From Bigelowiella natans CCMP2755 (Eukaryota > Protista > Cercozoa), in contig ADNK01002977.1 in the NCBI GenBank assembly GCA_000320545.1, positions 1 through 37,230 of the forward strand: a stretch of 37,230 bases of DNA, written 5' to 3'. The translations under genes and the position numbers were made by a program. Below the pieces are notes generated by a model. The model was not told the origin of the DNA and searched no databases. It saw only the letters and a list, made by a program, of their open reading frames with translations. Shown here piece after piece: positions 2,370 through 30,457 of the stretch; position 1 is the first letter of the stretch; every line of letters starts with the position of its first letter.

Positions 2370-2489
2370 GAAGAGGAGACGATTTGTGTTTCCGAGAGTC
2401 CTTCTGTCTGGTTCCTCTTCCTCTTCGGCTTCGTCTTCGCGCCTCCTCCTTCTCCTTCTTCCTCTTCGAACAATGGGAATGCGTTGAGT

Positions 2490-4440
2490 CACAACGAAAC
2501 CGGGATTAACACCGACAGTGACCGGTGTTCTTGTACTCGAATGTTGCCTTCCCATGATGTTGCGCAGAAAGAAAGAAATCATGCTCTCTTTGTTCAATGT
2601 TTTTTGCATGATCATCATGATCCCCGCACAAAAGACAATGAAACTAGGAATGGAGGAGTTGGACATCCAAGACACCTTTTCTTCTGACTGCGTTTGCGTG
2701 TCACGCAACACTTTGGAAACGTCAGTCGTTGGAAAATGGACGAGGATTTCAAACGAGATCTTCAAGCTCCTCGTTGGCCAAAGTGCTATTCTTGATTCCT
2801 TCTGGTTTCACTGGTTGCTCGAGTTTGGACCTCACCAAAGTCAGTTCGAGGCACTGCGTTTCGCACACTGCAAGTCTTGTCACACTTTGGAAGTGGGTTT
2901 TTCATCATTGTTCATTGTTCAAGTGTCTTCCAACGTTTTGGAAGTGCAGCTTGTCACCATTGTTTCATTGTTTCGCACATTGGAAATGTCTTGCAACACT
3001 TTGAAAGTGCAGTCAATCATCGTGTTCACCTGTTCGTCTGTTTCGAAGTTTCTTTCTGCTTCTTTCTTCCTTCTGAGAACTTGACAAGGACGTTCATTCT
3101 TCGTTTGCTGCGCCGTTCCTCTCCACTTTCAGTTGCGCTGCCTCACTGCAGGCACGCACGCCAACTTTGCATCGTGCTGGTTCTCACACCAGAGAGAGCT
3201 CTGAGGCACTGCGTTTGGCACTTTGCAAGTGTCATGCAACACTTTGAAAACGCAGTCGATCACCATGTTTCTTCCTTTCTTCTTTGTTCGATTCTTTCTT
3301 TCCTCGTTGTTTTCAGCTCGAGGCACTGCGCAGTGCGTTTCACACTTTGCAAGTGTCCTGCCACACTTGCAAGTGCAGTCGAGAGACACTGCAGACTGGT
3401 TCTTGTTTCGTTTGGTGATCACCTTGCTTCACGTTTCGTTCGTGCCATGCGTCTCCTTTTTGCTTGGTGTCACTTCACTCACTCATTCACCTCAAGACCT
3501 GCACACGATTCGACACCCAAAACCAGCAAAAAGCAGTGCACACGACACGCCGCCAGCACGAAACATCATGAACGTCTAGACGTGCCAGCAGGGCCATTCC
3601 AGCAGTCCAGCAGTGCACGCAGTGAACCACACACACCTCTAGACCTGTGTGCGAGGGTTGCGGGCTGACCACTGACTGCAGCTGACCTTCACTTGCACAC
3701 GCACAACCTCGCTAGCTCGCGCAGTGCTGAAGTGCCAGAGTGGTCTCATCAGCTGCAAAAGCTAGCAAGTGTGCACCCGCATGCGCACCACGCACGCTAG
3801 CACGCTGCTAGGCTGGTGGATGCACACCCAGCACATCACAGCTGTGGTTGACTACCACGTCCACTGATGTGTCGTGCACGCCTAGACGCGCACGCGTCAT
3901 TGCTGGTGCACGTGCACAATGGTTGCGATGCTGGCCTGCACGCGTGTCATTGCTGAATTGCGGGGGGCCATCTTTGCCACGCTAGCACGCTCAACGTACG
4001 TGCTTCGCACACATGTTTGTCATCGTCTCGTGTTGAACGATCAGTGTGCATCACCTCTGCCAATCTCTTAGATCTAGCTAGCTAGACCTGCTGAATCATG
4101 CTGCACGGTGAATCGAAGATGCAGCTAGTGGACATGCAATCATGCCAATGTGGCAGCCTGTGCATACACTAAAACAAGACAACAGCACATGCATCAGTCA
4201 TGCCACATCGACATCTCAATTGAGCCATTTGCAACGTGTTGAAAATTGGGAATGTGTTTCAACAATGAGTGTGTAGATGTCAACACGATTTGCGGTCGAA
4301 ATCTCTGGAGTAGCGGCTTTGCACACTCGATTGCCACTGTATTTTCTGCAATCAATGAAACAATCATGCAAAAAACAAGTAATGGAGCCATGAACTAATT
4401 GCCACACTCGTCATTGGTGAACGATTTTCTGCATTGCGTT
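2490..4440. other. TpA-depleted, TpG/CpA-rich intergenic block 1
   Basis: No TA in 2789-3576. Only six TA in 2789-3852, all within CTAG. CpG is retained. Overlapping long ORFs contain no Tyr. Confidence 0.9.
2699..3382 (+). repeat. Dispersed ~30-65-bp repeat, about 6 full or partial copies, quasi-palindromic core
   Basis: Consensus gaggcactgcgtttc..acacWtTgcaagtgtc..gcaacactttgRaagtgcagtc at about 2699, 2848, 2920, 2970, 3203 and 3320. Confidence 0.8.
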
Positions 4441-4471
4441 CGCAGAGCATCGTCATCTCTTCTTCCGCTGG

Positions 4472-5843
4472 TTAGTGGCTATTCTCCGAAAGCACACGCT
4501 TCCCAATTTCCCCAACAACACGTTCCGCACTTTCTATTGCACCGTTAATATATCTACAAATTAACAATACAAAATGATCAAAAGGCTGTACCATTAGCGA
4601 AAGCATAATCATGATGATCATAATACCAATGATGACGATGTGGTAATGGGATATAATGATAAGACGATGCATGTACTGTTGCATTGGTAGGTATCATCAC
4701 TTCCTACTACTACTGCTAATATACTACCCAAAGCCATCTAGCGCGTAATCTGCTCCTGCCCAGTATATTCTTCCTAAAAACAAAGATGATGATGATGGTA
4801 TGATTGATGCACATGAAGATCGATGATCACATTAATGCGGATATTAGCACAGGAACAAAAATCTGAGACTTTTGCTCACTACAACAGCAACTACTTAACT
4901 CGAGAATCTGTTTAGGTGCTATTATTGCATTCAGATTATGTCCTTCTGCGAATGAAATCAAAATATGTGCTAGATGAAAACTATAAATCGTATCCTTCCC
5001 ACCAAATGAAGAACGAAGGGCGTGTCCGTACTGAAAGATGAATGAACAACAGTGTCATTGGTGTGCGTGTGCGTGCGTGTGCGCGCGCGTGTGTGTTTGT
5101 GTTTGTGTGTGTGTGTGTGTAATGCTTCGTACAGAAGAAGCAAAAGAAAAGGAAAGGACAATTTCTTTTGTATGAGTATGTGTAAGTGTGCTATTTCGAA
5201 TATTTCTCACGTGATCAAATCTAGCCAAGTAAGAACATGATCAAGTATCTCACTCATAGACAAAACATCGAACATAAATATTCGAATTAACGATTATGGC
5301 ACCGTTACCATCACCTGTGTCCACACTCCAGGAGGAAAATAAGAACTGTACGCGCCTCCTATATGCCTACAATAGGAAGAATTAAATAAGAAAAGAAGAA
5401 GAGTAAGGAAGAGAAAGAAATAGGGTATGGAGATGACTAGCTGGTTATGTATAGGATATAGTAACTGCCCAAACTAAAAAGTGAAGGATCAACAAAGAAG
5501 ATGAGGAAGAACATGATACAGATCGATAGCGGGAGGGAGGGAGACATGAAAAAAGTAAAATATCATCATACTCCTGGGCTGCCCAATTAAAGTCGAGATA
5601 CTCTGTGGCCTCCTCTTTGGCTTCCTCACCCTAAGTAGTATCAGCAGCAGAAACGGAAGAATATACTTCAGTTTGAACACCAACAACACATTGGTCTCTA
5701 TGTCGTCTATTGCTACTCTGCTCACCATAATCACTTAATTGGGCAAGAGCAACAGGACAGTTACACGTAGTGAAGAGAATGATAATGATGACGATGACGA
5801 TGATGATATTAATGATGATGATGATATGATGATGATGATGATA

Positions 5844-11507: not shown

Positions 11508-11544
<37 letters not shown>

Positions 11545-12400
11545 ATGTGTGCATGCGTGGATGGATGCAATGCGTGATTCTTTCAGCCAAGGATTTGTGT
11601 CCTCATCTCCCGCTGATTCCAATGCCAGAGCAGAAAGGTGCACTTGGACGAACTGCAGGACACCTGGCTAGCTGAAGACTGTTTGTCCACACCCAGGCAT
11701 GCTCTAGCGCTTCTGCGTGCGTGCAGTGTCAGCTCATGATTTTGGTGCGCCTTGCAGCGCGTGGTCGCCGCTTGCCAGTGTGCATTGCCGAGCGCACGCT
11801 TTTGCACCACCCTTCGCCAACCTTTGGGACAGGCCGTTCTCGTTGCTCCAGTGCTGCTCATCGTGCGAAGTGAGCTTCACTTGTTCACCTCGTTCCACTC
11901 GAAGAACGGGCCAGTCATGTGCCAGAGTGGTTTGCATGGCACTTGCCAGCTTGGGGACTCAACGTTCCCACGTGCGTGTGATGAAAAGAACGCTTCAAAA
12001 GTTCACAGAACAGTCTAGCAGTGGCAAGTCTCGAAAAGTGAAGTGGCCAGCCGCTTGACCTTGTTGAGCTTGCAGTCACCAACACGCCACTGCCAAGCTG
12101 TGTCAAGCTCCACGGCAGCAATTGCCTGTGCGTGGTGATCGATGCATTCATGCATGATTCTTCTCCACGTTCGTCGTGCGACGCGAACAAACGTGCGAGC
12201 TCAGAACTCCAACAATTTCCGCTGTTGACCATGTGATTTGTTGAGGACGGCAGTGTTGCTGCGACACAGAATTAGGGTTGTCGCATGGCAGAGAACACCT
12301 CATTCACAAGAAGGAATGGACCTCACTGGAAAATGATGAAGCCTCACATTTCTGATTGTCAACATCACTGTGATACGTTTGTGGCACGTTTCTGTTTGAC
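11454..12400. other. TpA-depleted intergenic block 2
   Basis: 11454-12272 has only four TA (11483, 11669, 11705, 12016), all within CTAG. Confidence 0.9.
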
Positions 12401-12604
12401 ACTTTGTTAACGAACTGTGCCGATAGGGGGTAGTAAATCTTTCATTCCCACCTTCTTCCATGCATTCTCCAGCCTATTCCCTGTAAAACTACTTCCATTG
12501 CTTCCATTCCACAACATGAAATCCTCATCTTGCTGCTTGAGGACCCAAACTAATGATGTCACAAATGGTTCATTAGACTTCGACAGAAAATTCGTCCTAG
12601 TCAT
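11664..12604 (-). pseudogene. Possible relic of a spliced gene degraded by TA->TG/CA changes
   Basis: Phase-consistent exon chain 12258-12197, 12125-12060, 11967-11889, 11853-11751, 11703-11664. It needs damaged splice sites. ORF 12407..12604 may be an upstream exon. No family recognised. Confidence 0.35.
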
Positions 12605-12725
12605 TCTAGTAAAATAGTTAATATGCTTTTTGATGTAATATAAGAAAGGGAAAAATTCTTTTACAGATAACCCCTAAATTTACATACATTCTTAAGTAAT
12701 GATTAGCCATTCTTCAAAGACAGCA

Positions 12726-14289
12726 ATGACCAAGACAGTCAGCGATTTGGAACCTGAACCTGTATGTTTCAAAAAGTTTTCACAGTGTAGTAACAACCCG
12801 ACTTGGGAGTTATCCAGAAATACTAGACTCAATTCTTATTAGTAAAAGCTGTTTCTGGTAGGAATGGAGAAGAAGAAACGGCTGGCATGCTCCAAATACA
12901 AGACAACAGATTATAGCTATCACTTTCATATTTGGAAATGCTGGTCTATTTTATGGTTTGGTGTTCCCTTTTAGACCTGAATCGATGTACAATATCTATT
13001 TGATCCCGTACACTATTCTGGTAACTTTTTTGCTCAATTGCAAACTTCGGTTCCGTGTTTTTCCGATTTCCGATCCTCATTAAGACATTTTTTATCTTTT
13101 TTACTTGTAGACTGGGATTTGCCTCTCACTATTCATTCACGTCGAAACAGTGGACCCCATCCGTAAATGGGAAACACAGGAAGAAAATAATTGTACAGCA
13201 ACCCCAACACGGTCTATGGTTTTAATATGATTTAAAGTCCTCCATTTTAACTGTTATAAATATCTTCGCTAGAATATGTCAGTATTGCAACCTGCCAAGA
13301 TCAATGAAAATTACAACAAAGCACTGTCACATCTGGTAATTATTCAAAATGGTACATCTTGTATTTGAATCAAGTTTTTGGTTATCAGCAACAAATGCGT
13401 ATCGCATTTCGATCACCACTGCCTATGGTTAAATACATGCATTGGGGCGAAGAACTATTGGCAATTCTTCTCTATGTTGTGTTGCATCGTGGCAATGCAA
13501 ATTCTTCACATTGTACTTGCATGCATAATTTATGCGAACGACAATACTGTTGGCATTGCAAATCGTCTTGTTGGAAACTTTGAAGCTTACGCAGGTGCTC
13601 AAGACATAATTGTAACTATTTTCTTCCTGAAGTTCGATATGTTAGCTATTCTCGGAATTTCTCTACTTGCTCCCGCCGTAGCGTTTGGGGCAGTTGGTTC
13701 CCTTCTTTCATTTCATATCTATATTAAACTAAAGGGAACAACAACGTAAGTGCACTTGGCATGTTTGTGCAGATTTGTCAAAAACAAATGCGTAACAACG
13801 CGTTTTTCTTAGTTATCTTTTCCTGAAAGGGAAAGATGTAATACAGGCTGAGTTTGACGCTGAAACACGAATAAAAAGATCGAAGGTAGCATGGAAGTTG
13901 CTATTTTAGTTGTAAAATGCACATTAATCATGGACCCTTTTAGTCACATGAACAAAAGATAGAGGAGCGTCGTGAAAGGGAGAGGCAACGGTGGTTAGAA
14001 GAACGGTAATAAATTAGATTAATTGTAATAATGTGGATCAATAAAGATGAATGTGTATCATCTTAGCGATAAGAGACGGAAACAAAAAGCTCTACAAGCT
14101 AACAATAATACAATACAGTTATCAAGTTTGGATCATTTTGAGAAAAAAGAGGGACCTAGTGGTGTCCGCACCATCGGTCCTTCTGATTTTCAGGATCATC
14201 ACAAATCTTCGTCCAGAGAGGTCGAATTCAGTGGGAAAGAAACTGGAGTATTTGCGGTACACCAAACTTCCTTCGATGATTCATCCTGA
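12726..14289 (+). CDS. DHHC-type protein S-palmitoyltransferase (ZDHHC1/11-like N-terminal motif); about 8 exons
   Basis: ATG at 12726; RRNGWHAP..QIIA; CQYC..TKHCHIC|NKCVSHFDHHCLWLNTCIGAKNY; transmembrane helices; SFHIYIKLKGTTT|YLFL; stop at 14289. Confidence 0.93.
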
Positions 14290-14559
14290 TTTTAATTGTA
14301 CTATATTTCCTTCCACTATGCCAAGCGTGCTGTTATGGTCAATCTTGGAACTGCGAACGTTGACACAGTGTCTGAAGGAATTAAAATTCCAGTTGCTGAT
14401 GCGGATCATGTGTAAATATAAGGCTATCACTGGTACCTAATTGTAACGTTGTGTGTCGACTATAAATCACATGTGTTGATGTTTGCGTTTAAAATTATAT
14501 GTTGAACATAGACTTAACAAAAATGAAGAACTATGCCAGCGTATTTTCCAAGCAGCATC

Positions 14560-15560
14560 ATTCTACGAGATGTCACATGCAGTACGACCAGACTCGCCAC
14601 AAGACATGTGACTACTGTGGGAGGTCAGGACTAGGGGAGTGCAAGATGCCTGAGCCATGCGCAAGGCTGGCAGAATCTGAGGTGCTCTAGTGCTAGGACT
14701 ATAGACACAGTGTGTAAGACAGATGTAATTAATCAATGAAATTTGCTCAATAGTCATCCTTGTGTAGCTGTGCAATGCAGCGGCTACAGCGCTAACATTA
14801 AATCTGTTGGTTTCAGCCATGATGTGTTTCATGCAACTGAATGCAGTGCACATTGCATGCATCATGATTATAGACACAGTAATGGCACATGCAACATGCA
14901 TATTACATGTCTATTATCATGGACATCGGTGTAGAGCTACCCGACCGCACAAAATTTTAGTGGTCTTTGATGGCACTCTCGTTTCACTAGTTTAGTCGAG
15001 CAAACACCTCAAGACGCATCCTCTAGTGCTGGCTAGCTGGCGCACAGAGCAGCACAAGAGACATTGCATGCTGCTAACAGCTACTGTGCTGTCACTGACG
15101 CCTTTGTCTTGCACATCCAAACATGCATGCATTGCTAGATTGGCTGCAGCTGACATCTCTATAGATCTGCACATGTCTAGATGTAGCAGTAATGCAAGAC
15201 TAACAAACGTCTCATTGCTCTAATTCGGGTAACATAGCTGTATATCGCACGCATTTCAGCACTGCATTTAATGATCACTAAATGCGAAGTGCAGCACTTT
15301 GTATTGTAGTGACCGAGAATGACAAGGCAAATTTTACTTCATGTGATTCAAAACGATCGAATGCAACATAATTGGACAGCACATTCAACTAGTTTGCAAC
15401 AGATGGGCAAAATCGAATGTTTCACATGCATGATTGCTAGCTCTGAGCTAACTTGACTACGCTGCCTCATAATGAAATTTTCTGATGAAAAAACTCATTG
15501 CACTCTCACTTTGTGCTTGTTGCATCATTTAAAAAACGAACATGACTACTTGACTACACC
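14560..15560. other. Partially TpA-depleted, TG/CA-rich intergenic block 3
   Basis: Dense tgca, catg and ctag words. Many remaining TA are in CTA or TAG context. Confidence 0.7.
14705..14841 (+). repeat. Dispersed repeat, inverted copy of 22946-23082
   Basis: tgtagctgtgcaatgcagcggctacagcgctaa is identical in the reverse complement of the other copy, and the flanks align. Confidence 0.9.
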
Positions 15561-15568
15561 CAAAGGTC

Positions 15569-16137
15569 TCATTCTTGATTTTTTTCAGCTTCATCAATCA
15601 TCTCATGCAGAGTGCCAGCACTCAGCAACTTCCTTAGTCCCATCCAATCCTACCGAAAATTAGTTGACAAAAACGATTGAATATGAAGAAAATTGAAAAG
15701 AAAAGTATCAGCAAGGGCGTCGATTGATATTCTTTTGTATTGCAAAGATGAAATCGATTGAAGCTAAAATCCTAACTGTTGACTAACTAATAAGTGGATT
15801 TACTTCGGGGCCATCTCCGAAGCCGCCTACAAATTTGCCACCGATCCAAATCGAAGGTACAGAGCTCTGATGTATTGTTTGAAATCAGCCCCATAGATAG
15901 TTGTGCTGGTGGTGATAATGATTTTGGCACCAGTAGATTTTCGACGACTACCTGCCCAGTAATCTCCTTGAGAGCCATTCTTTCATCACTTTTGATGTTG
16001 AGAGAAACGTATTGTATTCCCTCAGCGTCCATGGTCTCCTTTGCAGCCTGCAGTGAATGAATTAACAATATTTTTGTGGTTCTTATGGGATATTCTCATG
16101 CGAGCCTAAACTAGCATATCTGTACACACGCGTATAA

Positions 16138-16212
<75 letters not shown>

Positions 16213-16639
16213 ATATTCTTATGCGCTCATGTGTGTTCATGGGCGCGAGAGTGGCTATGTTTTTATTGGACAAAGTTCTGAGAATAATTACTTGACAGAA
16301 AGGACACGTTGGGCTGGAAAAGATAACAACGGGTGTAGATTTTACAACTTGAAGAAGTTTTTCAGCTGTGGAATAATCATTTGATGAAATTAGCTCAAAA
16401 TGCATATCGAACAATATTTCCTGCATTCATTCTTAAACCAGGGAAAATAGCTATCACCGATAGGATTTTCGGTCGTAAGTGTTGAGCTTCCAGCATCCGC
16501 AGAGGCAAGCTTGACACTAATTACAATATATTAGCACTAAGAAGTGGATATGACATCTTAAATAATTACACAGGAGAAGGCAGTATCAATTGATCTATTC
16601 GTCTCTGGTTTCACTCCAATCCCCCTCCACCCCCCCCCC

Positions 16640-16681
<42 letters not shown>

Positions 16682-17093
16682 GTGTGTGTGTGTGTGTGTG
16701 TGTGCGTGTATCGTCGTTTCGAAGAGCATAGTACGATCAAAACAAGTTGCTAATAACCACCAGATATCGAAAATTGTTTCAAGGGATAATTTGTGAGCTA
16801 CAAGTTCATGCAGAAACCTTGAGCGAGGCCTTCCGGCGGCCGTTGTCGCAGCAGCTGCTGCAAAAATGGTAGTATCCTTTGCTGGCGTGCAGATCAATCT
16901 CGAAGTCACCGCATTCTGTATGATTTAGGAGAAATGAAATGAAAAGCCACACGTAAAGCAAGAGCACATAATGTTTTCACCAATAAGTGATACCGGCAGA
17001 AAACGCCCGATAATTCTTTGAAACATCTTTGCTGCGTAAACATGGCGTCCTGCAAGAGTTCCTAGGAACACAAAGAATATCATAATTTAACAC

Positions 17094-17127
<34 letters not shown>

Positions 17128-17612
17128 AAGATATTGCCATACCCACTCCCAGGAATATACACGCATAAACGGGAGACACAAGTAAAAGAGACCCAACTCG
17201 GTATGACCAGGGGCCATCCTAAAATAAAGAGATTATTCATCATAATTGTCATGATCATCCTTTTAATCTATGGATCTTCTTCTTTTGACCAACCCTTAAA
17301 GAGCCTTCGAGACCGATCGTGTGTTTTAAAGCAGGCCGAACGAGCGAAACACTTGTGGTGCCAGTCACACCGAACACAACGAACAAGATTGACGCCTCTT
17401 TGGCACTCTGCATAATTAACAGATAGATTGAAGATGAATCTCTCACTTCTTGTGACGGAATGATCTAAATATGGTAGAACCTCCCTCCAGGATGGCCGAC
17501 TTCGTGTTGTCCACTCCCAAAACCTTGACGACAAGTTCTTCGAAAAATGTCTGTGCTGCCTGCTGCGAATGGGCTGTAGAGGGAGGCGAAGTGCGGAGAG
17601 TCTTGAAATCAT
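15569..17612 (-). CDS. Fusion protein: mitochondrial-type presequence, DUF6787-like membrane domain and dithiol (CPFC) glutaredoxin; about 10 exons
   Basis: MISRLSALRLPLQPIRSR..SWRE|SAKEASILFVVFGVTGTTSVSLVRP..GSLR|DGPWSYRVGSLLLVSPVY..G|TLAGRH..GRFLP|NAVTSRLICTPAK..|..PVVIFSSPTCPFCQ|..LKEITGQ|SSVPSIWIGGKFVGGFGDGPE|DWMGLRKLLSAGTLHEMI..; TGA at 15569. The glutaredoxin part is secure; the fusion depends on two inferred introns. Confidence 0.75.
16140..16206. repeat. Compound (CA)n(TA)n microsatellite in an intron
   Basis: Seen directly. Confidence 0.95.
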
Positions 17613-18118
17613 CGTGTTGAAGAACCTGATGGGCGGCGTGTGCTCGGTGAAGCTTGCTTGATGCCTCGTGTTTCCTATTGTTGTTGTTACTGTTGCGTTG
17701 TCGAGATCAATGACAAATAGATGTTTCCCGCTGTTAAAAATTGAAATCCCAGCGATGATTAGCTAGTCAACATTTCGTCACATTTAGTAGGATGTTTCTG
17801 GATGCCGATGGCGATGACTTTAGTGAGGATGGTTGTGATGGTGATGGTGATGATTCTGTTGATAATAATATGATAATGAATAATTAGACATATTTTCCAA
17901 GATGTTTTCTTGTATTCATAATAATGTTTCCTACAAAGGTTGTAATTGTTGCGACGATGGTTGTCAACGATGATGATGATCCCAATCACAATTCTCACTG
18001 ATCAACTGTGGCTCCCTCCCCCTTCTTCCCTCGTAAAAAGCGCAACTCTCCGCTACGTTACTACGGGATAGAGTGAAATCGGGTCGACTGAAAGTTCGTG
18101 TCCCCTCGACAGTAAAAA

Positions 18119-18162
<44 letters not shown>

Positions 18163-18178
18163 GGAGATTGAATTGGAC

Positions 18179-18772
18179 ATGGAATCGAAGCAAGGAACAA
18201 ATTGGGATCACAACGGTGATATAAACCCTTCTCTCCTAGAGGAATCGGAGATTGACGATGACACTAAGAAGAAGGAGGACAAGAACCACTCAGAAATTGA
18301 GGTTCTACCTCTTGATCTCTCTCATGACAGGAAGGGAAAGCAGCAGAGTACGAGGCAAAACGTAACATCTCCTAAAGGTGATAGAGTAACCATAGTTGAT
18401 GAGGCAGACAGAAGCTCCTGTTTCAAACTTGTTTATCTTCTGCTACCACTAAAGTTCCTTCTACTTTTCCCCTCATAGTCGGTGGGAAAGGTGCTCGTAG
18501 TGGTGGTGAAAGAGGAGGAGGAGGAGGAGGAGGAGGAAGAAGAAAGCGAATTGCCCTAATTCGCAGCGTAATGAAAGTTGCTGGATTGTCGGCAATTTTT
18601 ATTGGCATAATTGGTCTCTCTGCAGTGTCCATTGCTACTGATGGAATAGAGCATGGTGACGATGGCCATCACAGCAATAATACAGCTATGATGGAAAATT
18701 TCAATGAGGTAGGTAATGTGAGAATGAACTGCATTGAGGATAACATACACTCACTCTCTCTCTTCAACATAC

Positions 18773-18838
<66 letters not shown>

Positions 18839-18840
18839 GT

Positions 18841-18886
<46 letters not shown>

Positions 18887-21800
18887 TACCCTCGAGGCTA
18901 CTTTCAATGAGCATAAATCTCATCAAATAGTAGTAGTCCCTAGTATCCTCTTGATCATATAATCCAAACGGTGGTGCTGTTGCTATAACACAACTGCACA
19001 GGGTTTCTCCCTCGCATTCCTAGCTGGTCTGTCTCTAGTGGTTTTCGCTCTGCATCCAATGAAATGTGTAGTGGGAGTAGTTCTTTGGGTAATATGGCTC
19101 TTTCAAGCTCTACTTCGAGAAGGGACCGATGTATGGCAAGACGTAACTGAGCGCTTTTTAGCTGCTAGTCTCTCAACCAAAATCTTCATTAGACACGGGT
19201 GGGTTATAACAATAGAAGATGAGACTTGCTAGAAGCAGCTCCAGTAGTTGCGTCAGCAGCAGCAGCAGTAGTAGTAGTAGTAGTAGTAGTAATAGCGGTG
19301 GTAGTGGTTCCTGTTGGATCATTGGTCTATCTTTGGTGTTATTCCTATATGTAGTAATGCATGAGTAAGTGGTAGTACAGTATTCGTCTTTGAGCATCAT
19401 TGCCCATAATCATTCTATTTGCTCACACTCCGAACCATCACTTGGAAGAAGAAAAAGACAACAAGGAGGGAGGGCTGCTATTACCCACGCCACACACATC
19501 GTCATTTCGTTTTCGAATGCGTTTTTATTAGAGAAATTAGCATCTTCTACCCCTGAAGATGAAATCGCATTCATTCACTCATGATGATGGCATTTGTTCG
19601 TAATGGTGCTATTGAACATTTATTGACTGGTGACCATGATAATGGTGATTATTAGGATCGGAATGCTAGCAGCTTGGGGTCGGTTGCTAGCACCATTTCT
19701 AACCGACATCTTAATTCTACTGCAAGAGCTCATTAGCCGCTTCTCCTGGGAGCAAAGACTTATAGGTGCCTTTACGCTTCTTGTTCTGTACGGCGTATAT
19801 CGTACATACCAAGCAGTGAAGGCACGGAAAGATGCTATTCTGGTACTGTCAAAGGGGGGAGGAAGGAAGGAAGAAGGGGGGAGACGAGTGTAGAGAGAGG
19901 GGGGGGGAGGGGAAAGTAACACAGGAAGAAGGAAGATATCAAATTTGACCAAAATCGGATCGAAATCACAGGGGAGGAGGAGAGTGGTGGGGGGGGTACA
20001 CGATTAGTGGGTGGTGTATGTACATCCAACATCGTAAAAAAGAATTTGATAAATATCATCGAACATGATGATGAGAGAATTCATTTAATATCATGGAACA
20101 TGGGGCATTATCACCACTATATCATCATCATCATCATCAACAACAACAACAACATTTCCTTCCTCCTCCTCCCCCTGTCATCGTGTCCTGATATCTCACA
20201 TTATTGAGGCATCATGTTGCTAATCAGCCCATCCTAGCACATAATAATAGCATATATTTTGTAATTCTCACAAAAGTTATAGTAATAATCATCATCATTA
20301 TCATCATAAAATTATTATTATTATTGTTATCATAATTATTATGGTATAATAGGTGGCTCTCTTCCAAGGCTCATATCTTCTTATCGGCCCTTTGGTATGG
20401 TTTGCTTTCCGACGTGCTATCCCTGCTAGGTGCTATCAACCATAAAATATTCGGATATGTGCGTATGTATGTATGTATGCATGCATGCATGTGTGATTAT
20501 ACGTACTAGCTATCTCCACACACTCTTTCATCGTCTGCATCCATTAGCATTTTCTGTTTGAGATTATTTGAGACATTCAAAATGCTATGACTACCACTGA
20601 TACTACCCCCCCTCCTCCTCCTCCTCCTCCTTCCTATGACGATGTTGATAGGTTTGCTGAAGGGGTACTTTTGGTGATTACAACGGTCGCGCCAACGTTC
20701 TTAAGCCTGCACGCTTTTCGCTATAGTTTTATTGCGAACGGAGGAGGAGGAGGGGAAGGCCAGAAGAGATGGAAAAAGAGCGTATGGGATCAATGGAAAA
20801 CTTGTGATTTATGGCTCAGGTACTATGTGGTTGTAGTTGCTGTTTGTTGTCGTGAATTTGATTTTAGCCTCTATCATTTCTTTTGTATTTTCTACACTAC
20901 CCCTACCATAGTACATTGGTTGCTCCAATCTTCTCTCCACTACCTACCATCGTCAATTAGTTGTTTCAATTTCTGATAAATATCCACGCAAAGTGGTGGT
21001 GATGGTGGTGCTACTACAAAAATGATCGATAGATGTTGAAACCACACAAAGAACAACTTCTTATTAATCACCTCAGCATGATTATTAGCAGTATCTTGAT
21101 CATTATCACTAACTATTCCATTTCCTCCCCCTCCTCCTACTTCTTCCACCTACTACTACCAATCAGCTATTGGTCGTGTTGGCCGCTAGTAATAGGACTC
21201 ACAAGCCTATGTACAAACTACATCACTACTGCATATGCTGCTCAGCTGTACAAAGAAGGCAGCAGGGCAACAACGGCTACCACCGCTGCTAGTGCTGGCG
21301 CTGCTGGTGGTGGTGGTGGTGGAAGTACTGTTATCCGTACTCAGATGTTCGCATCTTTGGCTACGCTATGTATCTGGCTACAATTCTGGTATGGAAGTAA
21401 AGCTTTCTTTTCGTTGGCAAGTAAGCTTGCGGCACAGGTATGTGATTGTACTTATTATGATGATGATGAAGATGGGGAGGGGGGGGAGGAGGGTGCGGGG
21501 TATTCATATGCCTTTGAGGATCAAAGAAGAAGAAGAATAAGATGTTGATCATGAATGTTAGTGAGTTATTGAGGGGCATAATACCTGCAGAAAATAGATT
21601 TGTCAAACATCTCTATCAATACGCTTAAGTTACGAGTAAAGCGTTTATATCCATGTTTTCTCGTCGTCGTCGTCTCATCCATGTCATATCTATTATTCAT
21701 TCATTATTGATCGATCATCACCAGATTGTTCCAAGTAGTCTGGGCGTGTTAACAGCTAACATGTCGTCGGTATCTCGTGTGATAAAACCTCTTCTTGGAG

Positions 21801-22521
21801 CTGGAGGTAATTTATCGCTCTCAGCGTTGCGTCAGCAATTGAGCATCATGAAGACGCTCGGATATCTCTGGGAAAATAAGCTTATATTTGGACCTATTAC
21901 CTTTTTCGTCGGAATTCTAATCTTCAGTCTAGGATTTCAAGTGTATACAATGATGACTTCAGTCTTAACCAGTCTCATTTGGGGCGGTGTTGCTTTGAGG
22001 AGTGCACGGGCTGTAGCTAATAAAGAGGCCAGTGTGTGCTCAGCAACCATTGCATTCTGGATTCTTGCACAGCTTTTAGAAGTATTATTAACCAACCAAC
22101 AAGAGTGCCAACGTCATCATCATCATCATCATCAATAGAGTTAACATCATATTCGTTTTACCTAAGGCATCTGTTTGGGTCCCTGTCGCTGGAAGCATGA
22201 TCAGCTTGTTCAAACCTGTTCTATTACCAATTTTTTTGGCGATTGGGGACGAGGTACATTATATTATGTTGTAATTAGAAGGTACGATTGAGATTGATGT
22301 CGATACGTGTTCATTTCTTAGGTGCTTAAAATTGCACTCACGTTGTTGGGTGAAAACTACAATTATTTTGCTGGAACTTGCGCCGCGGTGTCGGTAGCTT
22401 ACATCTTAAATGTAGATTAGGAATTGACGCAATTATCGCTCGCATCGCAACGAAAATGTCGAACATTTTATTCCCGGCTCGGTGTATCGCTGCTACATAT
22501 ATTAGTGTGAAATGGTGTTGA
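18179..22521 (+). CDS. Multipass membrane protein with two degenerate TB2/DP1/HVA22 (REEP/Yop1)-like segments; 3' end uncertain
   Basis: Hydrophobic exons flanked by GT-AG. Segment 1: VAPTFLSLHAF..DLWLSYWSCWP..LCIWLQFWYGS. Segment 2: GVALRSARAV..IAFWILAQLLE..VWVP..FKPVLL. The family call rests on motif resemblance only. Confidence 0.65.
18774..18885. repeat. Compound (TA)n(TG)n microsatellite in an intron
   Basis: Perfect TA run 18774-18836 followed by a TG run. Confidence 0.95.
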
Positions 22522-22679
22522 GAATTTATTTGATGTAGATGCATGTACACATGAGATTAAGTGCCATAATATATCGATAAAGCACACTAAAAGAAACTTT
22601 GTAAAGCACATCATAGTATGATGATGTGAACTACAGCTTGTTCGGTCTTTGTCACCGATTAGCTTATTAGCTTCCGCCT

Positions 22680-23416
22680 GCGTGCTGCATGGCAGTTGCT
22701 TAATTCGTTCGTTTGGCAATGGATGATGAGCAATGTGTACAAAATCAATTTGCATGCTCAACATGTTATTAGCATTATCAATGCACAGGGCTACGCTGGC
22801 AACAATAGACACAGTAATGTGACACACATTAGGATGACCATTGAAACAATTTGAACATTTCATTACATCCGTCTCACACATCATGCAATAATAGACACAG
22901 CAATACACAATATATATAATATATATTATATACATAGAGGACGCTTTCAATTGCATGAAGCACGTGGTGGCAGAAACCAACAGATGTAACATTAGCGCTG
23001 TAGCCGCTGCATTGCACAGCTACATCAGGATGACCATTGAAAAAATTTAATTCTTCATTACATCCGTCTCATACATAGTGTATTGCATGTCTATCATTGC
23101 ACACATTACATTGCGCATGTCCATCATGGCAAGGTAGCGATTCGTGTCATTGTATATATGTAGCATGGAATGTGCGAACACTCATGGGCGGGCCGCACAC
23201 GTGCAGTGCATCAGCTGCTTGTTGTGCCATCGCAGCACTCTGCCTGCTCAACCGGTACGTACAACAGAGAAATGATAGTCCATTATAGAAGTAAGATAAT
23301 CGAAACAAAACAATCCGATCGTATCGACGTCGGTAAACATTTCTGAACTTGCGCTCGCTGTAGAGTGTGCATCTGTCTCTAGATCTAGACACATTGATTA
23401 ACACATTGCATCCAGT

Positions 23417-23440
<24 letters not shown>
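22680..23440. other. Partially TpA-depleted, repeat-containing intergenic block 4
   Basis: TG/CA-rich. Contains a direct repeat (about 22823-22882 and 23021-23078) and the inverted copy of 14705-14841. Confidence 0.6.
22946..23082 (-). repeat. Dispersed repeat, inverted copy of 14705-14841; partial direct copy at about 22823-22882
   Basis: aggatgaccattgaaa..ttcattacatccgtctca occurs twice locally, and its reverse complement aligns to about 14715-14760. Confidence 0.9.
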
Positions 23441-23473
<33 letters not shown>

Positions 23474-29000: not shown

Positions 29001-29468
29001 AAATCCTTGTTTTCATTCTTAAACGGACCAATTATATCGCATCATAGCCCGATTTACTTCGATTTTTTTTTAGTTTGGGTGACGTAACATCATTAAGAAG
29101 ATGACCATAGATTTCTTCATCACCTTGTCTTTCTGTTTTGCTGTCCCTCAATACCATGTGTTGGTACTTATTATGATTTATCTATCCCCTCTTAGTCAAG
29201 CTGCATGCTCCTTCGAATCGACGATATCGTTTCTGGATTGACCAACAAAGAGCAGTAAGTAGTCGGATGAGCTACTATAACCTACTACTACTACTACTGC
29301 TGCTCCTACTCCCCAACTTCGTTGTCGCGTAGCGACAGATCGAGGAATTTTAATTGGAGGGACAGATTGTGCAGATGTCGCATGATTGCCTGCACTGGGC
29401 GGATAGCTCACTATATAATTGTAGTAACCCACATCGTCTGCAGCACAGCGAAGGCACAGATGGCATGA
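26011..29468 (+). CDS. CCT3: T-complex protein 1 subunit gamma (chaperonin CCT3); 10-11 exons
   Basis: MQSPVLVLNTNTKREQGRKAQLGNI; RTTLGPRSMLKM; TNDGNAILREI; QDEEVGDGTTSV; RVEKIPGG; IVLLDCPLEYKKGESQT; EKGVSD; ERNLQDAM; PGGGATEM; LLRIDDIVSG. Stop near 29258 if unspliced, or at 29468 with a final exon. Confidence 0.97.
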
Positions 29469-29539
29469 ATCATGTAGCTACACGTATACGCCTTGACGCA
29501 GCACTAGAATAATAACTGAATTAATATTGTGGATTATGA

Positions 29540-30380
29540 TAAAAATGGACTCGTCGCTAGCAGCTAGCTAGGTATAGCATGGTTGACTAATAGCCCTGCT
29601 TGCATCTAGATTTCTGGTAGTCAGCTAGTCAGGAACGCTCTAGACGCTGCGCTACCATCATATGCACCAGTGCAGTACATCGTTAATCGATCAGAGATTG
29701 ATCTATACATCGATACGTACATGCATGTGATTGTCTAGCTAGCTAGCTAGCTAGCTGCGCACGTATAGACGATGCACATCTAGCTATAGCTAGCTCTAGA
29801 GCTAGACACGCTGCGACACCAGCTAGCTAGCTCTAGAGCTAGCAGCAAAAGCGGGCTAGCGGGTTGGAGCATGCATGCACTGACCTCTATCTAGCTTGCA
29901 CGTAGCTAGCTAGCTAGCAGCTCTAGAGCTAGCTAGCAGCTAACAGCCATATGGATGAGAGGCGGCCGTTCATGAAACGTGATTTGCCATCAACAAGTCG
30001 CATGCAATAACGTAACAATGCATCTCGGCATCCCTCATCCACATGCTAGCATGGTCATCTATAGTTGTGGCAGCCGACATGACTGAAACTAAATGATGCA
30101 CGTCGAGCTTGCATGCTGCATGACAAGTCCATCTGCTAGCCATGTGCACACGCATCTTGTCTGCTGGCCACATCTGCATGGTGGACACATGCAACAATGA
30201 TTCGTCGAGTGCCATGTGCACACATGTCTGCTACACATCTAGACATGCATGGCTAGACAGCTGCACGGCTAGATGGCCTATCTGGACAAAGCAATCATGC
30301 CCTCGTGTGCACATCTAGATTCATGCGCAAAGGAATGTGGCTACATCCAAACACGTTCTGCTGTCATATCATGATGTGAG
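29540..30380. other. Intergenic block 5: (AGCT)n/CTAG-rich tract followed by TpA-poor, TG/CA-rich sequence
   Basis: gctagctagc arrays at about 29735-29756, 29821-29843 and 29903-29941. TA in 30095-30345 occurs only after C, mostly as CTAG. Confidence 0.75.
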
Positions 30381-30457
30381 TGCAAATGATAGGGTGGCAA
30401 GGTATCGTCAATCATGGTATGGTGTTTATCCAATATGGGGTCAAATGACGTTAGTTA

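Follow-up and report, generated by a model that had tools for sequence, protein, structure and literature searches.

Introduction

RIP of fungi is a dinucleotide-specific mutation that acts on both strands and ruins the open reading frames of mobile elements, and it makes TA from CA or TG. A comparable signature of opposite direction has been described in Bigelowiella natans, where integrated NCLDV and virophage DNA undergoes TpA>TpG/CpA hypermutation (Mettrop et al., bioRxiv 10.64898/2026.01.13.699255). According to the part of this preprint that was available, two viral regions had gained 231 de novo changes, 230 of which were A>G or T>C, all on TpA, the TpA>TpG/CpA rate in the two inserts was about 6e-7, and ADAT2 was named as candidate enzyme from motifs and predicted structure. 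Coding sequences depleted of TpA were enriched in reverse transcriptase, endonuclease-RT, DDE and zinc-finger domains, and the preprint suggests that the process reaches transposons; sites above twice the mean depth were left out. No other report of the TpA signature, or of the LINE described below, was found in the literature searched, and the available parts of PMC13196603 and bioRxiv 10.64898/2026.07.28.741278 held nothing relevant to the signature.

The pattern that we describe in a LINE family of B. natans matches the hypermutation of the viral inserts of this species in dinucleotide, direction and its occurrence on both strands; it is a known process at a new target, followed copy by copy in polarised comparisons rather than through composition. 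As the core phenomenon had already been described in B. natans, the surprise is limited. What is added here is the polarised LINE evidence, the near-sparing of the 3' tails and the survival of CTAG in TA-free islands; the main text of the preprint, as far as available, makes no mention of CTAG, of trinucleotide or other context, or of spared 3' ends. With RIP, which the preprint also cites for comparison, the LINE pattern shares the dinucleotide specificity, the involvement of both strands and the ruined frames of mobile elements, but the direction is reversed and a single-copy island is affected as well.

Results

Three repeats in the window are 3' ends of a LINE

Self-comparison of the window, the entire 37,230-nucleotide stretch of B. 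natans DNA analysed here, whose genes carry short GT-AG introns, bore out the repeat copies reported by a first-pass annotation, with a likeness far beyond chance. A CCT3 segment of the window was 100% identical to a JGI Bigna1 model, the next matches among named chlorarachniophytes standing at 79-82%. An inverted pair (14705-14844 and the reverse complement of 22943-23081) matched at 83% over 140 nt (E 3e-34) and a direct pair (22826-22881 and 23022-23076) at 87.5% over 56 nt. The repeats are 5'-truncated 3' ends (the last 9-37 codons and a short UTR) of a B. natans APE-RT LINE, and are designated copies A, B and C.

14697..14711, plus strand: left direct repeat of copy A, candidate target-site duplication, 14/15 identical to 14866-14880
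14712..14844, minus strand: copy A, LINE 3' end (tblastn 29/35 to P0124; alignment; family allele shares)
14740-14844, minus strand: ORF part of copy A, the last 35 codons of the APE-RT ORF; the UTR follows and the stop is lost
14866..14880, plus strand: right direct repeat of copy A, doubling as left arm of an AT-rich foldback unit that extends to about 14922
22799..22818, plus strand: left direct repeat of copy B, candidate target-site duplication, 18/20 identical to 22885-22904
22826..22878, plus strand: copy B, last 9 codons, TGA stop (22852-22854) and UTR; L002 subfamily, 51/51 identical to L002 over 22826-22876
22885..22936, plus strand: right direct repeat of copy B (22885-22904), continuing into the left arm and (TA)n centre of a foldback
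22930-22937 and 23071-23078: 8-nt direct repeat flanking copy C
22937..23072, plus strand: copy C, last 37 codons, TAA stop (23048-23050) and UTR; P0124 subfamily (tblastn 35/37 to P0124 and P0144)
23071-23104: right arm of the AT-rich foldback whose left arm and (TA)n centre lie within 22885..22936

A pattern scan of a metagenome found the repeat at three loci (L001, L002 and L003), and pattern scans of viral contigs and genome contigs gave no match to it. At L002 the repeat closes an open frame of 517 aa in which RT motifs and a CCHC finger are present; its relatives include full-length APE-RT ORFs of 1153 aa as well as many gene models of B. natans. P0126 and P0138 matched PF14529 (E 4e-19 and 1e-18) and PF00078 (E 3e-17 and 2e-17), placing APE and RT in one ORF, and the window copies align to the last 35-36 residues of these two proteins. 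The Cx2C...H...C of a C-terminal CCHC finger was seen in the alignment; the zf-RVT match of the outgroup P0154 was weak and below cut-off. This outgroup also carries an insert with RNase H-like motifs recognized by eye, absent from the B. natans family and with no Pfam RNase H match. At least three subfamilies of this APE-RT-CCHC LINE were distinguished, and the 3' ends of seven aligned copies fall within a few bases of each other while their 5' ends vary, copy B being about 53 nt long, copies A and C about 135 nt and L002 over 1.5 kb. With contigs mapped on 11550-16100, summed depth at 14770 was about 31,000 and 65,000 against about 8 and 18 in the unique flanks; the ratio of repeat to flank, about 3,500-3,800, is not a copy number and is read as a family of thousands of copies. 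At L001:736-1267 and L003:1593-1925, older and heavily decayed longer LINE pieces adjoin short 3' ends, hence fragments of the family cluster or nest.

The family resembles APE-type non-LTR LINEs in its APE and RT, the YxDD motif, the C-terminal CCHC, the common 3' end with variable 5' ends and the flanking direct repeats of variable length. It differs from them in that copies A-C have no clear poly(A) or tandem tail, no tail being common to the copies past a few bases, and in that a common motif flanks A and B in opposite orientation to the element. A SINE sharing the tail of a LINE was rejected, since the copies consist of LINE ORF end and UTR with no pol III (tRNA, 5S, 7SL) head; Rfam gave nothing at gathering score over the whole window.

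The direct repeats around A, B and C measure 15, 20 and 8 nt, and the motif common to A and B also lies within the foldback unit. The sequence ATAGACACAG occurs four times in the window (14697-14922 and 22799-23104), only as the direct-repeat pairs of A and B. A single AT-rich foldback with a (TA)n centre is the site of both B and C, the centre of the sister unit at 14866-14922 being CA/TG-rich, and extra contig depth was observed at 14884-14900 in the latter unit, beside copy A. Copy A has 21 extra bases inside its direct repeats, and no empty site was seen for A-C. Target preference or a composite element are possible readings of this arrangement. A host transcript (X15 record, 14511-14746) also carries copy A, in antisense, in its last exon.

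Differences among the window copies

All mismatches listed by the first-pass annotation were found, each at its position. The bias towards TA<->TG/CA that it had proposed from them was only partly upheld: such mismatches exist, but in the homologous cores TA/TG-type differences made up 6 of the 12 clear-context transitions against 35% expected (binomial p=0.21), a non-significant excess, alongside 11 transversions, four unclear-context transitions and one CA<->TG double change. The window by itself is therefore insufficient to carry the claim. Copies A, B and C retain 8, 2 and 6 TA against 12.0, 5.7 and 10.8 expected; their surroundings have a rho TA of 0.74-0.95 and a CA+TG of about 1.66, and lie outside the depletion thresholds of the preprint.

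Independent decay in each copy, the explanation offered with these mismatches, applies to about three of the eight positions (14714, 14796-97 and 22877); four are subfamily-level and one lies on a junction. Alignment identified the four as subfamily or master differences common to other copies, namely 14716, 14752, an Ile codon (ATT vs ATC) and the stop codon (TGA vs TAA). About half of the listed sites are thus inherited subfamily differences rather than within-copy decay; they are compatible with TA loss in the source lineages. At 14752 the change is synonymous (Thr), and TG makes up 89% of the family contig depth. Taking the family majority as ancestor was dropped, because subfamilies dominate the pile-up. 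Position 22825 is unscorable, as it falls on the junction at the 5' end of copy B and is one base beyond the 51-nt stretch identical to L002.

The three remaining positions are compatible with copy-level TA loss. At 22877 the TA of L002 is CA in copy B, and at 14796-97 copy A has Val (Ile>Val at 14796) in place of a conserved Ile or Leu, a two-step change via TA or via CG. The best copy-private events are others, overlooked in the first pass: the Ile>Thr change of copy A at 14762, a residue that is Ile in the outgroup and in every intact ORF and at which 98% of the family has A, and the two mismatches between the 20-nt direct repeats of copy B, both of them CA/TA and reciprocal. Copy A further shows an ordinary CpG loss at 14721, where the family has G in 92%.

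Part of these observations would also follow if the TA/TG/CA differences had arisen in a few source copies (master or non-autonomous), been amplified and been inherited by most copies. Four of the eight positions track subfamilies, several TA rows are 87-100% one way, and Tyr>His and Tyr>Cys are fixed at two columns in intact-looking members of one subfamily. Inheritance from mutated sources holds for some sites. As the account of the whole it is improbable: a given Tyr is found intact, as Cys or as His in different copies of a single subfamily, mutational loads differ widely, single-copy islands show the same TA loss, and the two reciprocal mismatches in the repeat of copy B post-date insertion if that repeat is a target-site duplication.

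Conserved residues give the direction of change

As every Tyr codon contains TA, conserved tyrosines polarise the change. Columns were scored where two intact ORFs and the 40%-identical outgroup P0154 agree, across 10 B. natans models and 964 cells, with 346 low-identity cells dropped. Conserved Tyr had been replaced by Cys (9), His (13) or Arg (1) in 23 of 34 cells and by other residues in three, in gene models that are biased towards copies from which stop codons have been lost and whose cells are partly interdependent inside a subfamily. Non-TA A>G/T>C controls were changed in 2 of 301 cells (one Asn>Ser, no Lys>Arg), and the reverse change, Cys or His to Tyr, was seen in 1 of 41. Likewise, Ile had gone to Met, Thr, Val or Ala in 24 of 71 cells, the reverse in none of 80. 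When one column with an inherited His was removed, Tyr loss stood at 16/26, and an earlier reference set that did not include the outgroup had given 14/30 against 14/730. The direction TA -> TG/CA assumed in the first-pass annotation was therefore right for the LINE family on the basis of the polarised Tyr columns, and it agrees with the mutation-accumulation data of the species.

The load of Tyr changes was uneven, P0144 keeping six of these residues and P0327 one. A single Tyr column read C, H, H, C, H, H, H across seven copies, and the tyrosine of the YxDD motif was replaced in two models, by His and by Cys respectively. As the same codon became Cys in some copies and His in others, both strands must be hit.

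Deamination at methyl-CpG or CpA, or a RIP-like C>T process, would make TG/CA or CG the ancestral state, and could draw on the CpG decay at 14721 in copy A, on TG as the family majority at 14752 and 14800 and on the route through CG at 14796-97. At single sites such decay may have operated; as an explanation of the whole family it is refuted by the near absence of reverse changes at conserved residues (1/41 and 0/80) together with the loss of TA, the islands described below having a rho TA of 0.07-0.2 where RIP would enrich TA, and we regard it as very improbable. RIP in the strict sense (C>T at CpA creating TA) was rejected on the same grounds, Cys/His>Tyr being found in only 1/41 cells and TA being depleted, not enriched.

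The same direction is seen at the DNA level. Contigs of run X1 mapped on L002:1040-1771 gave 37 A>G and 34 T>C against 11 G>A and 14 C>T (110 places), and runs X7 and X12 gave similar counts. A directional count by dinucleotide, which the first-pass annotation had recommended, was made on L002 and supported its view: 14 of 64 TA adenines had changed against 14 of 343 other adenines (p=1e-5) in the best-supported 40 of 122 rows, a selection that favours lopsided sites. Seven of the 14 changed TA rows are synonymous and near-fixed, and these may be source-level differences. At three dinucleotides L002 and the mapped copies had diverged by opposite routes, TG versus CA, with a conserved residue that fits TA and not CG. 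Along the open-frame copy at L002:300-1771, TA loss forms a gradient, with almost no TA left at 400-800 and more towards the RT core.

The strand balance argues against ADAR-like editing of the element RNA prior to reverse transcription. ADARs favour U before the edited A (bioRxiv 10.64898/2026.01.13.699255, available part), as this explanation would need, but sense-only editing would give Tyr>Cys and not Tyr>His, whereas His (13) was at least as frequent as Cys (9), A>G and T>C were balanced (37 vs 34), and non-LINE islands and flanks show the same pattern. We consider such editing most unlikely.

Spared 3' tails, TA-poor islands and CTAG

The LINE 3' tails are only lightly hit, a pattern that may be overstated, as diverged copies map less well. 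At the TA sites 14765 and 14785 in the high-depth 3' core no variant at 3% occurred among the rows listed, and 14726 and 14731 were changed in about 1-2% of the DNA depth. The last Tyr of the ORF was kept in five of six models, saturated ones included.

Two TA-poor islands were delimited in the window, and a LINE match was looked for in both and not found.

2470..4480, unstranded: TA-depleted, CA/TG-rich island, with zero TA at 2787-3577 (790 bases) and no LINE match
11540..12400, unstranded: TA-depleted intergenic island, three of its five TA lying in CTAG, single copy at 80% likeness, flat depth

Rho TA in the islands was 0.07-0.2, and the 1-kb intervals 3001, 3501 and 11501 had TA depletion with CpA/TpG enrichment at the thresholds of rho <=0.43 and >=1.52. 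The second island has a kinase gene on one side and a DHHC gene on the other, and its RNA depth was near nil up to 12309 in two runs. A minus-strand ORF (1986-2765) reaches into the first island with its 5' part, and its 3' part weakly resembles BMT5 (Pfam E 0.005, atlas 0.81); short internal repeats rich in Cys lie in the island at 2833-3382. The first island may thus represent a host gene of which the mutator has erased a part; the 18 island frames gave no Pfam match above cut-off, and no longer homologue was found for the ORF at 1989-2765.

CTAG accounted for 8 of the 21 surviving TA in TA-poor intervals (2470-3580, 11540-12400 and L002:300-1200), the limits of which were drawn by eye, against 69 of 2049 elsewhere in a background of host DNA (p=4e-7). 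The density of CTAG in these intervals equalled the background, and other TA were down about 7- to 27-fold. Protection was not absolute, as one X12 contig has CCAG at L002:1134. Sparing of YTAR (12 seen of 33.1 expected vs 9 of 155) had p=5e-5 including CTAG and p=0.11 excluding it, and a strict half-site rule, in which a 5' C or a 3' G blocks the change, was broken by 1077 and 1698, one each. A preference of the mutator for T-A-pyrimidine (11/34 vs 3/30, p=0.04, in chosen rows and post hoc) is only suggestive.

CTAG-rich blocks low in CC/GG were observed at 29330-30420, 3580-4480 and L002:1-200, the window blocks having 31 and 12 CTAG per kb vs 2.2; CTAG could be an end state that builds up over time. 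Compound (CA)n(TA)n or (TA)n(TG)n microsatellites at 16137-16212, 18770-18885 and 23410-23470 could be (TA)n tracts partly converted.

Discussion

In the LINE family of B. natans, TA has changed to TG or CA, on both strands and with an unequal load among copies. We consider it likely (a probability of roughly 0.8) that the longer LINE copies lost TA through the TpA-specific mutator that acts on the integrated viruses of this species, a putative DNA adenine deaminase working on chromosomal copies. Abortive reverse transcription would produce the thousands of short 3' ends. After insertion, the A of TpA on either strand would be deaminated to inosine and read as G. In the long genomic copies, A>G and T>C at TA wreck conserved tyrosines, including that of the YxDD motif; the 3' tails are lightly hit and CTAG mostly survives. 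The source lineages were presumably hit too, which would give rise to subfamily differences such as TAA versus TGA.

The same pattern could come about by other chemistry than adenine deamination, if in silenced chromatin a polymerase were error-prone at TpA or the thymine there were modified. Double-stranded data do not distinguish A>G from T>C, and the ADAT2 candidate of the preprint is based on motifs and predicted structure. A WA motif of the polymerase-eta type would hit AA too, and the rarity of Lys>Arg and Asn>Ser at strict columns (none and one, within 2/301) argues against an error of that kind. Other chemistry is the less likely course, though it deserves more weight than any of the alternatives weighed above.

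A wider reading goes beyond adenine deamination of LINE copies and is put forward tentatively: the TpA mutator of B. natans might be a general, context-reading defence on mobile DNA that prefers T-A-pyrimidine, leaves CTAG, spares the LINE 3' tail and reshapes active sources, carried out by one DNA-editing enzyme conserved in Rhizaria and stramenopiles.

The preprint measured the process in two viral inserts only, and its reach to transposons was there inferred from composition. The LINE family shows it codon by codon, with the catalytic Tyr of the RT destroyed in genomic copies and both strands affected. Survival of CTAG provides a testable specificity for any candidate enzyme, and the rate, spread and context of the process could be read out, in polarised form, from thousands of insertions that have paired target-site duplications.
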